NCBI GenBank assembly: GCA_046046455.1
Contig: JBJOJS010000054.1
Location: forward strand, 31,434 to 95,433
Direction of reading: 5' to 3'
Length of the DNA: 64,000 bases
Source of the DNA: Actinomycetota bacterium
Lineage (GTDB): Bacteria > Actinomycetota > Actinomycetes > S36-B12
Shown in pieces: positions 30,444 through 53,597 of this stretch. The position numbers were made by a program, and so were the translations under genes. Positions within the stretch are counted from its first letter, which is position 1. The number at the start of each line of letters is the position of its first letter. The notes beneath the pieces are model-generated. The model did not search any database. It saw only the letters and a list, made by a program, of their open reading frames with translations, and was not told the DNA's origin.

Positions 30444-31420
30444 TGGCCGGTAACTCCCAGCGCAAGGGCGCCATGCGCAAGGAAGGCACCAAGAAGGGCA
30501 TGACCGTCGGCTCCGGTGGCCAGCGCCGCAAGGCGCTCAAGGGCAAGGGGCCCACGCCCAAGGCAGAGGAGCGGACCAAGCACCCGGCCGCGCGTCGCGC
30601 GCGCGCGGCCGAGAAGCGGGCTGCCAGGAGCACGTCCTCGACACGCGGCCGTAAGGACGGACGCGAGGTCCTCGTGGGCCGCAACCCCGTGGTCGAGGCA
30701 CTGCGCGCGGGAGTCCCGGCGTCGGCGCTCTACGTGCAGCAGTACGTCGACACCGATGATCGCGTGCGCGAGGCGCTGACAACAGCGGCAGACCAGGGCA
30801 TGCCGATCATGGAGGTGACGCGTGCCGAGCTCGATCGCATGTCGGGAGGTGCGGCGCACCAGGGATTGCTGCTCACCGTGCCGGCGTACGACTATCTCGA
30901 CCCTGACGACCTGCTCGCGCGGGCCATCGACTCGGGCACGGCGCCGCTGATCGTCGCCCTCGATGGTGTGACCGACCCGCGCAATCTCGGCGCGATCGTC
31001 CGCTCGGCCGCGGCCTTCGGCGCCCAGGGAGTCGTGGTGCCCGAACGCCGCGCTGCCGGCGTCACCGGCTCGGCGTGGAAGGCAAGCGCGGGCACACTCG
31101 CGCACGTTCCTGTCGCCCGAGCCACCAATCTCACCCGGGCGCTCACCGCCTATCGCAAGGCCGGTTGCACGGTGATCGGCCTCGCTGCAGACGGCGACAT
31201 GCAACTCACGGCGCTTCCGCCCGACGTGGCGCGGGATCCCCTGGTCATCGTGATCGGTGGTGAGGGGCGCGGCCTGAGTCGCCTCGTCGGCGAGACGTGC
31301 GATCACATCGTGTCGATCCCCATGGCCGCGGACACGGAGTCGCTCAACGCTGCGGTGGCGGCGGGGGTGACGCTCTACGCCGTCGCTTCGCTGCGGACCG
31401 CGGGTGCGGCTACGCCGTAG
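30443..31420 (+). CDS. rlmB: 23S rRNA Gm2251 methyltransferase (SpoU family)
   Basis: [29 protein letters not shown] and [13 protein letters not shown] coupling to cysS. Confidence 0.94.
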
Positions 31421-34136
31421 TGGGGTGTCCCGCGTCAGCGACGGGATGCGCAGATTCAGTAGCCGGAAGCGCTGGGTCGCTGGCGACCTGACCGCCGACG
31501 CCGGTGGCCATCGAAATCCAGACGAACCCCGCGCGCCTGAGGGCGTCGACATCGGCCTGCGAGCCGGCTTCAGCGATGAGGTGGGTGCCGCGCCTGGCCA
31601 GCGCTGAGGCGACCTGCTGGACCGAGAGCGGATCCAGTCCTGTGGGGCGCCGGTCCTTCCCGAGCGGGAAGACCAGGGCCCACGGGCTCCAGCCGATGAG
31701 GTCGTCGGGATCGGCTCCGGCTGCGGCGTCTGCGACGACGGCGATGCGCAATCCCCGATCCTCCAGGAGAGCGAAGGCCTGGCCCGAGCCATGCGGGACC
31801 GAGGAAACCACGATGACGGTCCGTGCCGCGTCGACGCGATCGAGCAGACGCCCTGCGATGTTGGGAAGGGCCGCAGCGCCGGCATCGGGCAGGAGCAGCA
31901 GGGCCGGTGCCGAGACGAGCACGGGCGCCCCCGTCGCCTCGGTGTCGCACAGGAGGGTACGGACTGCTGCCAGCGAACTGGCGGTGAATTCCACAGCCAG
32001 ATCGAGGCGATGTTCGGCCGCGTCCAGGAGTCGATGCGGGGTCCCGAGATCGAGGTCTCCGGGTGCGTGTGGCCATGACGCGTCGAGTTGGAGGGCGACA
32101 TCCTCCCGAGTGCGTGAGTCGATGATGCGGCGGAGAGCGAACTCCAGGCCCTGATCGGGTGTGCCTGCTTCGGCCAGTGCCTGTGCGAGGTCCGCTGTCG
32201 AGATCGTGGCTGAGCTGCCCGTGATGTCTTCCGGGGTGAAGTCGAGGTAGCCGAGGCTTTCGCCGAGGAGCGCCCGGCGGGTTGACCTGTCGCGGTCGAG
32301 CCGCTCGGCGGCGACCTCCATCAACTCGGGGAACGACACCGCGTCGACCTGATACGTGGCGTGACCGAGGGACACGCTCACGCTGACCTCGACGTCGACG
32401 CGTGCCGACGACACGGAGCCGTGATCGTTGATCCACTGCTGCAGGGCACGCAATTGAGTGGCGACGTGCCTGACGACGGGCCCACCCAGCAGCCCGATCC
32501 AGATTCGGCCGGCACCTTCGTACGCGACGAAGAGCTCCTCGCCCGCGAAGTCGGCGTTGCCCAGCACGGTTCGAATGACCTGGGCCACAGCCGCCTGCTC
32601 GAACTTGCCGCCGGCTAGTGCGCCGAACTCATCGATTTCGAGAACGGCTACGAGGAGCGAGCTCGTCTGGGTGGACTGGTCGGCCCGGTCGCGCAACCGA
32701 TCGCCTGCTTCATGGAAAGCGGACATCGTGGGCCAGCGCGATCGGTCGTCGAACATCAAATCAAAGGCGCGACTAGCGGAGAGGTAGTCCTGTGCCATGA
32801 CGGGGGAGAGCAATGCGAGCGTGGCGAGTTCGACGTACTCATCGACGATGTCGCGGGAGCGAATGAGGAAGGAGCCGGGGGCGAGCCACGAGCCGATAAC
32901 GATCCAGCCTTCGGCGTTGTCGCGATCGGGCCGGCCCAGGCGGATCTCGCGGTGAGGGCGTGCCGCCAGGTCCGTTGCCAGGGGCACGGGGCCGACGTCG
33001 TGTCGATCCAACCCGGCGAGGCTCGAGCGACGAGTTCCGTCCGGAAGCGTGATGTGCCCCATGGCGCGTGTGGCTCCGAAGGTCGCCAGAGCCACGCGGG
33101 TGGCCGTGGGAAGCGCAGCGCGTGCAGCGAGATCCGGGCTGAGCGATCCATCGGCGAGTCGGCGCACGATCTCGGCCTGGTGGGCTCGCCATGCCCCTAG
33201 CAGTACGCGCGCGTCATGGCGCCACCAGGCGATGGACGCGAGCCAGAGTGCCGCCCACGCGACGACCAGGACACCAAGGCCCGCGAGCCCAGCCGCGTCC
33301 TCTCGTCCCGGAGTCGTGGGCCCGGCTGTCGACGCGACCGCGACCGCAGCGGCGAAGGCCAGCCAGGCGACGAGGGCCGTGATCCCCGCGATGAGGAGGC
33401 GGCGTGGATCGATGGCATCGCGCAGGAATGCCCAGCGTTCGCTTGCCCCGGTCGCCCAGCGTTCTAGGGAATTGAGAGCCAGTTGCGAGTACAGCGCCAC
33501 CGTCACGGCCAGCAGGAGCGGCCAGATGGACATGCGATCGATGAGCAGGGGCGCGAGCGAGTAGACGATGAGATACGCGATGGCCGCTGCGGCGCCGGCC
33601 GAAAAGCTGGAGAAGATCGCGGAGAAGCGCATGTTGACGTCATGTCGCGGCGCGCGTCGGATCATGACGGCCGCGCGTGCGATCAAGCCGACGCCGATGA
33701 GAGAGATGGTGATGGCAGGTGGAGTGAGAACGCCGGCGAGGAGTGCTCCGACGAGCAGGGCGTCGAAAGTGATGGTCACTCGGTCCCAGGACCGGATCCG
33801 GCTGTCGTTCTCGGAGAAGAGGGTCCTGCTCCACGCCGCGGAACTCGTGCGGAACGTGGCTGCCGGGACCAGCGCCGCCAGGGAGAGGATGATCACTGAT
33901 CCGACGATGACGGCCAGGACATCCTCGTCGGCGGGAGCGGGCATCGGCAGGGTGAACGCGACCACGATCGCGGCTGCTGTCGCGACCAACCCGACCACGA
34001 TCGCGAGGGCGCCGGCGATGCCGGCGCGCAGATGCAGGACGGGCAGGCTGATCGAGGAGGCGTTCGGCGGCTGCGGGATGAGCCAGGAGCCGAGGGTGCG
34101 GAGGACCCGCGTTACGGGCTCGCGGGCCGACGTCAT
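31410..34136 (-). CDS. Multi-pass membrane protein with degenerate GGDEF and EAL domains
   Basis: Many N-terminal TM segments. GGDEF-like [12 protein letters not shown]...[11 protein letters not shown]...[11 protein letters not shown]-like [13 protein letters not shown]...ALQLDASW...LIAEAG...[14 protein letters not shown] 6 nt before ATG 34136. Confidence 0.7.
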
Positions 34137-53259: not shown

Positions 53260-53597
53260 CCGGGGGTCCACTCGACCGGGCTGCCTTCGCCACTTTCGCC
53301 CTGTCGCAGAACCTGCCGATGGGACTCATCGAGGAGGGAGCTCGGGAAGGGCGACTGCCCCTCTCTGAGCGGCACACCCCGGAGTGGTTCGCGGCAGCAG
53401 CCGAAGAGCACGCCTCTCTCCTCGACATGGCTCCTGAACTCCGAGCCGGTGACGACTCACCTGGGCAGCGCGACCTCGTCGGCATCTACGGCGGCGGGGG
53501 ACAGGGCTTGCCCACGACCCCGGAGCCACCGGTTCGGGCCGGTTCGGACAGCATCCGCATCGGCCTCCTGCGCGAACTCGAGGGCTTGGACGACTGA
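53256..53597 (+). CDS. Small hypothetical protein coupled to the ATPase gene
   Basis: GTGA overlap; ends in amphipathic IGLLRELEGLDD. Confidence 0.6.
   Translation: MTGGPLDRAAFATFALSQNLPMGLIEEGAREGRLPLSERHTPEWFAAAAEEHASLLDMAPELRAGDDSPGQRDLVGIYGGGGQGLPTTPEPPVRAGSDSIRIGLLRELEGLDD

Follow-up and report, generated by a model that had tools for sequence, protein, structure and literature searches.

The region described here, positions 31410-53597, lies in a 64,000-nucleotide (nt) stretch of DNA from an uncultivated freshwater actinobacterium (the whole stretch is called the window). It is a type IVa pilus cluster, and a gene for a divergent sigma factor is embedded in it. The genes, numbered g01 to g21 where they are not named after a family, follow the order g01 (minus strand); g02-g05 (plus); pilO-pilN-pilM (minus); pilT1-pilB-pilT2-pilC-pilA (plus); and g14-sigma-g16-g17-g18-g19-g20-g21 (plus). 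The host genome is a metagenome-assembled genome (MAG) of 2.95 Mb in 144 contigs, 94.8% complete, and the records of its relatives are named Candidatus Nanopelagicales, Actinomycetes, or Actinomycetota MAGs. Since the G+C content of the window is approximately 68%, genes were called from third-position G+C and frame plots and then by homology. Families of pilus and regulatory genes were assigned by Pfam and NCBIfam models with curated cut-offs. We lean toward the view that the cluster carries its own transcription switch, in which the embedded sigma would act on promoters shared by the pilus units and the small protein g14, encoded next to it, would restrain the sigma.

The pilus machine

An earlier note on this DNA had delimited a pilus block of 22 kb, and both its coordinates and its gene list agree with the Pfam and NCBIfam assignments and the frame plots. 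PilB, PilT, PilC, PilM, a PilO-like protein, and a pilin are encoded in the cluster, and a prepilin peptidase is encoded on contig C40; this is the set by which the cluster is assigned to type IVa. On the plus strand, pilT1 (41806..42921) and pilT2 (44593..45921) encode PilT/PilU-family ATPases scoring 370.3 and 478 bits, respectively, against TIGR01420 (cut-off 319.1), and PilT2 has a Pro-rich N-terminal extension. The extension ATPase gene pilB (42914..44584, plus) matches T2SSE with 448.8 bits and has an N-terminal MshEN domain (E 2.3e-10); against TIGR02538 it scores 593 bits, under the cut-off of 675.65. The N-terminus of PilB (window 42914-43060) also shows a weak match to the MshE-type motif for binding of cyclic di-GMP (c-di-GMP), with 24 bits against a cut-off of 38. 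The platform protein gene pilC (45908..47125, plus) matches T2SSF with 219.8 bits, and the PilC models start at residue 25-31 of its open reading frame (ORF). The major pilin gene pilA (47246..47692, plus) is matched by N_methyl (34.9 bits) and by the GspG and PilA models. A GC-rich hairpin 3' of pilA (47714..47743, plus; -37.6 kcal/mol, z -5.15, a stability reached by 0 of 200 shuffles) is likely a terminator.

The minus-strand unit comprises pilM (40597..41709; TIGR01175, 145.7 bits against a cut-off of 133), a pilN-like gene (39863..40600), and a pilO-like gene (39195..39869; frame plot; PF04350, 22.9 bits against a cut-off of 22). The pilN-like gene gave no family match in Pfam or NCBIfam and owes its name to its position and one transmembrane (TM) segment; its orthologs are syntenic. 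The minor-pilin operon on the plus strand starts with g02 (34235..35505), a PilV-like minor pilin (N_methyl, 27.7 bits against a cut-off of 21.2; TIGR02523, E 1.6e-8, under its cut-off), whose prepilin leader ends, as read from the sequence, at G|FTLIE. It is followed by a second pilin-like gene, g03 (35502..36200; frame plot; TIGR02532, 19.2 bits against a cut-off of 16.3). In such freshwater organisms, pili matter for attachment and for the uptake of DNA.

The embedded sigma factor

The sigma gene (48273..49367, plus) encodes a divergent group-3 sigma of 364 amino acids (aa), in which an alpha/beta N-terminal domain (N-domain) is followed by sigma domains 2, 3, and 4. The AlphaFold2 (AF2) model, with a predicted local distance difference test (pLDDT) of 77.5, has the alpha/beta domain at residues 10-120 (pLDDT 85-94) and helical domains after it; domains 2, 3, and 4 are found in the order that marks a group-3 sigma. 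In the Foldseek search, Streptomyces venezuelae WhiG ranked first (E 2.9e-5), followed by a SigD model, sigma-28, and SigB (E 3e-5 to 1e-3). The top 18 hits at E ≤ 0.001 are all sigma factors, with a probability of 1.00 for the top hits, and the solved sigma-28/FlgM complexes 1rp3, 1sc5, and 9wsf are among the fold matches. Domain 4 superimposes on solved domain 4 structures with Z 8-9 and a root mean square deviation (rmsd) of 1.8-3.0 over 57-69 residues.

The scores with the sigma family models are all far under the cut-offs, with 33.6 bits for SigF, 30.3 bits for SigB/F/G, and 28.6 bits for FliA_WhiG (TIGR02479, cut-off 189.6). A genome-wide search with the FliA/WhiG model scores the sigma at 29.7 bits. 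Region 4_2 in Pfam is reached narrowly, with 25.8 bits against a cut-off of 25.7, and the sequence search of the Protein Data Bank (PDB) gave Escherichia coli FliA first (E 0.005). In profile alignments by hhalign, the sigma matched three SigF-like sequences with E 5.1e-11 and 15 WhiG-type sequences with E 1.8e-7. The gene had previously been labeled FliA/WhiG-like; it is a real, sigma-like gene, but by sequence no closer to FliA/WhiG than to SigB/F.

An alignment of 30 homologs gives a mean column identity of 61%, with constraint over the full length and approximately 140 N-terminal residues conserved. The structural neighbors of the N-domain (Atlas, VIA) are generic alpha/beta and ferredoxin-like folds at background Z values of 7.2-7.7. 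The N-domain is rare: a search of 1.84 billion proteins gave 23 representatives at E ≤ 0.001. Seven of the nine N-domain proteins scanned have weak matches to sigma region 2 or 3 behind the domain. Homologs of the sigma come from metagenomes and MAGs, and their names, where the source gives any, are nearly always "hypothetical protein."

A common promoter of the pilus units

Sites of the form GGTTCA-N16-(G/T)CCGA(A/T)AC precede the units of the cluster. They have a GCCGATAA-like -10 box and, 16 nt upstream, a -35 box, within the 15-17 nt expected of sigma-28-type promoters, and they are conserved across loci. The word GCCGATAC occurs eight times in the window against 1.84 expected, a count that 0 of 100 shuffles reached, and has 87 copies on both strands of the whole genome. 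Of the eight copies in the window, six are in the cluster, facing and just 5' of g02, pilM, pilT1, g17, g18, and g20. Orthologs of these genes in three genomes of the same genus, the proteins of which are just 30-70% identical to those of the window, are preceded by the same box.

The individual boxes should be noted. The minor-pilin operon has GCCGATAC at 34199..34206 (plus), and a like box with an ATG at +14 is found in two of four related genomes. The pilMNO unit has GCCGATAC at 41747..41754 (minus), located by the motif scan and kept in related loci, and the pilT1-pilB-pilT2-pilC unit has it at 41791..41798 (plus), with the GTG start at +14. The box of pilA is TCCGATAC (47175..47182, plus), and in 34 non-identical related sites a like box precedes pilA by 61-82 nt. 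Further GCCGATAC boxes on the plus strand precede g17 (50146..50153; position weight matrix score 16.4) and the g18-g19-g20-g21 unit (50930..50937; found by the motif scan and kept in related loci). The box before the MinD-like g20 (51761..51768, plus) is specific to this genome, and a high-scoring site is present there in 0 of 31 related loci.

For comparison across species, 46 related loci were taken from species-representative genomes. The sites in them were anchored on the box core, and a leave-one-locus-out matrix was scored against 1,840 background windows. The 119 non-identical sites from the 46 loci give the consensus A.CG(G/A)(G/T)CCGA(A/T)AC(C/T)C, with GGTTCA ending 16 nt 5' of the -10 box and a purine at +14. 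The matrix tells the first genes of units from internal genes. The 99th percentile was reached before pilM in 21 of 23 loci, g18 in 19 of 31, pilA in 13 of 36, g17 in 9 of 38, g14 in 4 of 36, and pilT1 in 1 of 28, and in no locus before pilN, pilO, pilB, pilC, sigma, g16, g19, g20, or g21. At the 95th percentile, the counts are 31/36 for pilA, 19/28 for pilT1, 24/31 for g18, and 16/38 for g17. A matrix derived solely from other genomes ranks the pilA (22.0) and pilT1 (21.1) sites of the window first and second in the whole 2.95-Mb genome. One promoter motif thus joins the units, as the earlier note had claimed: it is conserved across species and stands before six to seven units.

The start codon of pilT1 (ATG or GTG) lies exactly at +14 in 20 of 21 pilT1 sites. 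Since this is where transcription from a sigma-28-type promoter is expected to start, a leaderless pilT1 mRNA is predicted.

Other sites found with the matrix include one at window position 63953 (minus; 15.1) and one on another contig (C19:97643, plus; 18.1), with no obvious gene downstream. The remaining high-scoring sites (contigs C2, C85, C27, C9, C131, C114, and C130) are intragenic or precede unrelated or junk ORFs and were taken as chance matches.

The unlinked prepilin peptidase gene

The cluster had been called self-contained, but the prepilin peptidase gene, pilD, sits on another contig. The sole Peptidase_A24 gene of the host genome is located outside the window, on C40 at about 11958-12772. 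Among 48 related loci, 43 have pilD between g17 and g18, where it lacks a box of its own. The unlinked pilD of the host carries the promoter type of the cluster: TCCGATAC stands 16 nt 5' of its GTG, and the site ranks eighth genome-wide. Whether kept or gained, the box of the relocated gene adds weight to the promoter code.

g14 as a candidate partner of the sigma factor

The gene g14 (47806..48270, plus) encodes a soluble protein of 154 aa without a family and ends 2 nt 5' of the sigma start. Of the 40 loci with sufficient flank, 37 have it next to the sigma, and it is the neighbor that stays with the sigma in every arrangement. When the g14-sigma complex was predicted with both alignments supplied, the interaction prediction score from aligned errors (ipSAE) was 0.81 (0.82, 0.81, and 0.81 in the runs), and the best of three controls reached 0.00. 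The partner had a pLDDT of at least 69, and at least 52% of the contacts are common to the runs. The ipSAE mark is reached by 58 of 80 solved complexes and by 2 of 110 mismatched pairs, a calibration that holds roughly here, since custom alignments were used.

In the model, the interface on the sigma comprises residues 291-342, which span the helices of region 4.1 and the beginning of the helix-turn-helix (HTH), and takes in the invariant residues P317, L320, A321, Y324, L325, and W328. The side of g14 consists of residues 35-44 and 89-126, including the conserved YDPAF stretch. The region 4.1 face of a sigma docks on the beta-flap, and several known anti-sigma factors cover that face. Since the predicted contact of g14 is on the docking face, we infer that g14 is a candidate anti-sigma factor. 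A descent of g14 from the N-domain of the sigma, as a copy of it, was rejected (hhalign probability 0.1%).

Known small partners of sigma-28-type factors were looked for in the host genome. No FlgM (PF04316) was found, and no flagellar export gene (FlhA). The RsiG motif E-x3-S-x2-R-x3-Q-x3-D has 0 hits in the genome and none in the 46 loci; with Q or H allowed, four hits are obtained, none of which is RsiG-like. The suggestion that the partner of this sigma would differ from RsiG is borne out to the extent that the RsiG motif was not found and that g14 is predicted to bind the sigma.

Distribution and synteny

The distribution was analyzed in an order sample of 201 genomes, with 47 other genomes of the host's family and 153 from nine other families. 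It is given as counts, without a statistical test, since the kin are not independent. The sigma is present in 17 of the 47 family genomes and in 0 of the 153 others. The pilM type of the window occurs in 15 family genomes, all 15 with the sigma; two family genomes have the sigma without this pilM type, and the converse was found in none. More distant pilM genes (27-39% identity) occur in other families, without the sigma. Weak sigma hits in other families of the order proved to be SigB/F-type sigmas and were discarded.

The gene order around the sigma is also maintained. The block from pilM through pilA is present in 25 of the 26 loci that have at least 9 kb upstream. On the other side, among the 26 loci with at least 7.5 kb downstream, g16 is found in 24, g17 in 24, g18 in 23, g20 in 24, and g21 in 23; overall, g16 is present in 41 of 44 loci. 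The conserved module beside the pilus genes is accordingly g14-sigma-g16-g17-(pilD)-g18-g19-MinD-like-g21. The sigma and the genes without a family therefore co-occur with pilus genes in other genomes, so that a lack of co-occurrence, which the earlier note would have taken as a refutation, was not observed.

Three loci show a different arrangement. In L037 (9526-12409), L040, and L053, g14 and the sigma are kept, whereas the pilus machine, g16, g17, and g20 are absent within the flanks. All three have pilD directly 3' of the sigma. In L037, a g18-like gene comes after pilD, and dtd and a THAP4-like gene adjoin, as in the window.

Which sigma factor reads the promoters

The mechanism that we propose is as follows. 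The embedded 364-aa group-3 sigma would direct RNA polymerase to the promoters of pilMNO, pilT1BT2C, pilA, g17, and g18-g21 and, in the host genome, also to those of the minor-pilin operon, the MinD-like gene, and the unlinked pilD. Transcription would start approximately 7-8 nt after the box, which would leave the pilT1 and pilD mRNAs leaderless. g14 would bind domain 4 of the sigma, most likely holding it off the polymerase until a cue arrives. The g14-sigma-g16 unit would be under a different promoter in most genomes, so that the switch would be set from outside. The products of g16, the DUF4388-like g17, and g18-g21, with the MinD-like ATPase among them, may act downstream in the control or placement of the machine; these roles are guesses.

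The embedded sigma is the only sigma-28-like candidate in the host genome: searches with a hidden Markov model (HMM) and tblastn gave no other FliA/WhiG match in this 94.8% complete assembly. We consider it quite probable that the divergent sigma reads these promoters in the host, because the place at which relatives have a canonical WhiG-type gene is contiguous here and holds none, and because other sigma-carrying genomes without a canonical match keep the promoters.

A number of observations weigh against the proposal, and the first group concerns canonical WhiG. A canonical WhiG-type gene lies on the opposite strand between g18 and g20 in 13 of the 46 related clusters (L020-L024, L026, L030, L034-L036, L039, L055, and L057, at approximately locus position 14800-15800, minus strand), giving two sigma genes in one cluster, and in those 13 clusters the canonical protein could read the promoters. 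The host MAG is in 144 contigs, and a canonical gene may be missing from it. The main rival explanation is thus that a canonical WhiG/FliA-type sigma, the gene of which is missing from the assembly, reads the promoters, and that the embedded protein is a second sigma with few promoters or a regulator of WhiG. The promoter consensus is consistent with this, being the one reported for canonical actinobacterial WhiG homologs (PMC12871210, PMC8325347). In the order sample, canonical WhiG is over the cut-off in 97 of 201 genomes, and TIGR02479 scores are 222-236 bits in G068, G093, G111, G179, and G200. However, neither the HMM nor tblastn found a canonical match in the host genome, and the place that WhiG occupies in the relatives is fully assembled there and holds g19 only. 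Moreover, 12 of the 17 sigma-carrying family genomes of the order sample have no canonical match over the cut-off, and five further sigma-carrying genomes, including the closed 3.46-Mb chromosome G221, lack such a match and keep the promoters. We therefore consider canonical WhiG an unlikely reader in the host.

The second group concerns the sigma protein itself. Its region 2 gave no match to PF04542 at E ≤ 0.01; the genome-wide search with this model lists five other sigma genes with ordinary region 2, and not the embedded one. The residues that align with region 2.2 appear diverged, and they leave core binding unassured. Judged by sequence, the protein is a divergent group-3 sigma not assignable to sigma-28, and by profile it seems somewhat nearer to SigF-like proteins than to WhiG. 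Its sigma-28 character is assigned because of the promoters, not because of its sequence. Together with the extra N-terminal domain, the weak region 2 could mean that the protein has lost core binding and is no longer a sigma, acting as a DNA-binding regulator or a decoy. Against this reading stand the column identity given above, with invariant residues through domains 2 to 4, and the Foldseek result, which places the three-domain model with sigma factors. Furthermore, a sigma is required for two-box promoters of fixed spacing that have a start codon at +14, and the searches gave no other candidate. A loss of sigma function is very unlikely on this evidence.

The third group concerns control. 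The motif precedes the sigma's own unit in only the four of 36 loci mentioned above (99th percentile). Upstream of g14 in L022, L024, L034, L036, and L057, a common word like TAGCCGGATATATC is found 26-127 nt before g14, where the sigma-type box is absent; by its position, this word may be a promoter or operator of the g14-sigma-g16 unit. As for g14, the complex prediction gives a model confidence for a contact, not for its effect, and cannot separate an inhibitor from a helper. g14 gave no match in Pfam or NCBIfam and none to a known anti-sigma family, and its best PDB profile hit is glutamate racemase (E 0.017). The low-confidence Atlas model (pLDDT 0.55) has ferredoxin-like neighbors, which are leads only; this fold is common in ligand-binding and adaptor domains. 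It is conceivable, then, that g14 binds the sigma as a helper or adaptor, stabilizing or docking it, and that negative control comes from proteolysis or from the product of g01 or g16. The conservation of g16 equals that of the sigma, and the two genes overlap, at the start of g16 and the stop of the sigma. On the other hand, the predicted g14 interface covers the region 4.1 helices, used in beta-flap docking and targeted by anti-sigma factors, which we infer to favor inhibition, and even where the pilus machine and g16 are missing (L037, L040, and L053), g14 is kept with the sigma. A helper role has, in our estimate, a low probability.

Contigs from a freshwater metatranscriptome run (X1) are identical to window 47445-47707 (pilA), 48047-48250 (g14), 51022-51219 (g18), and 51631-51799 (the g19/g20 junction). 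They show presence in an RNA library only. They are no evidence on promoters, because the contigs give no starts, strand, or level, and DNA may contaminate the library; stretches lacking coverage are uninformative.

Comparison with known systems

Control of type IV pili by the sigma-28 family is already a known theme in Actinomycetota: published cases are Rubrobacter and Actinoplanes, and predictions exist for several further families (PMC8325347, PMC12871210). In Rubrobacter, a WhiG-RsiG-(c-di-GMP) switch controls type IV pili, with the promoter consensus TAAA...GCCGATAA (PMC8325347). The present cluster resembles that system in that a sigma of the flagellar-promoter type would drive several units of an actinobacterial type IV pilus cluster from promoters with a GCCGATAA-like -10 box, and in the linkage of a gene of the diguanylate cyclase/phosphodiesterase type, which g01 may be (unconfirmed). 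The differences are clear. The sigma here has 364 aa with an extra N-terminal domain and is far under the FliA/WhiG cut-off. The -35 box is GGTTCA here and TAAA in the Rubrobacter consensus. The RsiG motif is absent from the host genome and the 46 loci, and instead of a coiled coil the predicted partner, g14, is a small protein of the alpha/beta type. c-di-GMP belongs to the switch in Rubrobacter; a link to it here is hypothetical.

WhiG1-type (FliA-like) sigmas of Actinoplanes and other Actinomycetota are described in the preprint PMC12871210. It reports the Actinoplanes WhiG1 consensus CTCA-N16-17-GCCGAACT; the predicted or confirmed WhiG1 targets include type IV pilus clusters, and WhiG1 is described without an RsiG partner. 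The likeness extends to the consensus, which is near GGTTCA-N16-GCCGA(A/T)AC, to pilus clusters as targets, and to the absence of RsiG. In contrast to the sigma here, WhiG1 is presented there as canonical in length and sequence and goes with flagellar clusters, and the host of the present cluster yielded no flagellar export gene. The sigmas of that study were retrieved from 673 reference genomes with S. venezuelae WhiG as the BLAST query, a search that is not expected to find the divergent sigma family. The words "Nanopelagic" and "divergent" do not occur in the text of PMC12871210.

Sigma-28/FlgM resembles the proposed pair in that a group-3 sigma is held by a small partner covering domain 4 and in the GCCGATAA-type -10 box. 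The host genome, however, gave no FlgM match; g14 is predicted to be folded and touches domain 4 only in the model, and the regulon consists of pili, not flagella. The cyanobacterial group-3 SigF controls pilA outside a flagellar context. It is likewise a group-3 sigma for pilin expression, and the present sigma is by profile at least as near to the SigF type as to WhiG, though SigF belongs to a different phylum. To our knowledge, neither an arrangement embedded in the pilus cluster nor an N-terminal domain is known for cyanobacterial SigF.

The literature searched, which was of limited scope, held no description of this sigma family and gave only the WhiG papers above and unrelated work on Methylophilaceae. 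What appears to be new is the divergent, domain-extended sigma family with a predicted partner unlike FlgM or RsiG, and the five to eight conserved genes of unknown function that travel, together with a MinD-like ATPase, with the pilus machine. A broader interpretation can be offered tentatively, and we hold it for possible rather than probable. An undescribed sigma/anti-sigma pair, comprising a sigma with a ferredoxin-like sensor N-domain and g14 clamping its domain 4, may have taken over the sigma-28 promoter set of WhiG in one family. It would form an autonomous circuit with g16 (with a possible metal site), the DUF4388-winged-HTH protein, g18-g21, and the MinD-like ATPase that sets when and where pili are made. 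The host group consists of abundant uncultivated freshwater Actinomycetota. The promoter code is clean enough to predict the regulon from sequence, and the related genomes with and without canonical WhiG form a natural series on the replacement of one sigma by another.

Genes without a family and the MinD-like ATPase

Eight genes of the cluster are without a family (g01, g04, g05, g14, g16, g18, g19, and g21). Six ORFs had been listed as unassignable; they are real genes, with syntenic orthologs in the three same-genus genomes and the 46 loci, but the count is eight. Pfam gave nothing at E ≤ 10 for g01, g04, g05, g18, g19, and g21, and a TM-window scan found no TM-like segment in g05, g14, the sigma, g16, g17, g18, g19, or g21. 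Two minus-strand ORFs (38470-39330 and 50943-51974) were rejected as genes; relatives match the plus-strand frames.

The best conserved of these genes is g16 (49364..50068, plus; 234 aa), the start of which overlaps the sigma stop, with a mean column identity of 64% in the alignment. Its C-terminal C-x12-H-x5-C-x2-H is invariant. The AF2 model has a pLDDT of 86.8; no meaningful Pfam or PDB-profile match was obtained, and Foldseek gave none at E ≤ 0.001. Residues 100-173 match Sm-like small barrels (VIA) with Z 7.3-7.6 and rmsd 1.9-3.9 over 56-70 residues, a level that is common. As judged from the model, this fold match is not convincing, and the Sm-like matches carry no functional inference.

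The next gene, g17 (50168..50917, plus; 250 aa), has a DUF4388/PATAN-like N-terminal part and a winged-helix-like C-terminal part, as recognized via its orthologs. Among 30 orthologs, nine match DUF4388 (PF14332; best E 3.4e-5), eight HTH_IclR, and four MarR_2. The earlier reading of g17 as DUF4388-like is unconfirmed for the copy in the window, which gave no match at E ≤ 1. It is followed by g18 (51031..51441, plus), a soluble protein of approximately 135 aa, the start of which is set by the alignment at MRAW and for which no PDB profile match was found, and by g19 (51438..51722, plus), a weakly conserved 94-aa ORF in the frame plot that is detected in 6 of 46 loci at E ≤ 1e-4. The last gene, g21 (53256..53597, plus; 113 aa), is present in 23 of 26 loci with enough flank.

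Between g19 and g21, g20 (51817..53259, plus) encodes a MinD/ParA-superfamily ATPase of 480 aa with a 190-aa N-terminal extension, as assigned by family models. AAA_31 (39.1 bits), CbiA (29.7 bits), and MipZ (22.1 bits) are over their cut-offs, and the deviant Walker A motif is SKGGSGKST. The PDB sequence search gave nothing at E ≤ 0.001, and the N-terminal 194 residues have no Pfam match over the cut-off. The designation as a MinD/CpaE-like ATPase holds for the MinD/ParA superfamily and the deviant Walker A, but not for MinD itself, the score with the MinD equivalog being 44.5 bits against a cut-off of 212.9. CpaE/TadZ proteins are MinD/ParA ATPases of Tad pilus loci. g20 resembles them in that an N-terminal extension precedes an ATPase domain with a deviant Walker A, and in its place inside a pilus cluster, but this cluster is of type IVa (PilB/PilT/PilM), not Tad, and g20 is under the MinD equivalog cut-off. 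By analogy, one might guess at a positioning role for g20 and the DUF4388-like protein.

Upstream of the machine, g04 (36197..38374, plus) encodes 725 aa with one N-terminal hydrophobic segment and has an ortholog of 30% identity in genome G012; it is possibly a pilus-associated tip protein. The soluble 257-aa g05 (38425..39198, plus), the strand of which is fixed by a tblastn match of 37% identity in the same genome, is present in 13 of 46 loci, a count limited by flank length.

At the border of the cluster, g01 (31410..34136, minus) encodes 908 aa, as delimited by the frame plot. Its first 300 residues contain approximately nine TM-like windows, and a cytoplasmic part of 600 aa follows. In five of five genomes checked, the gene is on the strand opposite to the sigma and 17-27 kb upstream of it; in one case it is broken by stops. 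It had been described as a degenerate GGDEF-EAL gene, a label that is unconfirmed: neither the single sequence nor a profile of 18 homologs found a Pfam or PDB match at E ≤ 10, and 0 of 17 homologs of approximately 900 aa have a Pfam domain on record. The host genome has four GGDEF and two EAL domain genes elsewhere. Alignment of g01 with these domains by hhalign gave weak matches, E 0.026 and 0.31, which come in the order expected of a GGDEF-EAL protein.

Flanking genes and other features of the window

The block is flanked by housekeeping genes, with cysS and a SpoU methylase gene upstream and genes for a Na+/H+ exchanger and a major facilitator superfamily transporter downstream. Phosphate-related genes, all ordinary-looking, are found at window 3168-13650 and 23619-26263; they include ABC transporter genes, NUDIX/His_Phos, CHAD-CYTH, polyphosphate kinase, a GlnR-like regulator, PhoU, and a two-component pair. 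Farther downstream, a 1330-aa ORF (window 56537-60529) joins trehalose-6-phosphate synthase (GT20), trehalose phosphatase, a trehalase-like N-terminal part, and GH15 in one frame.

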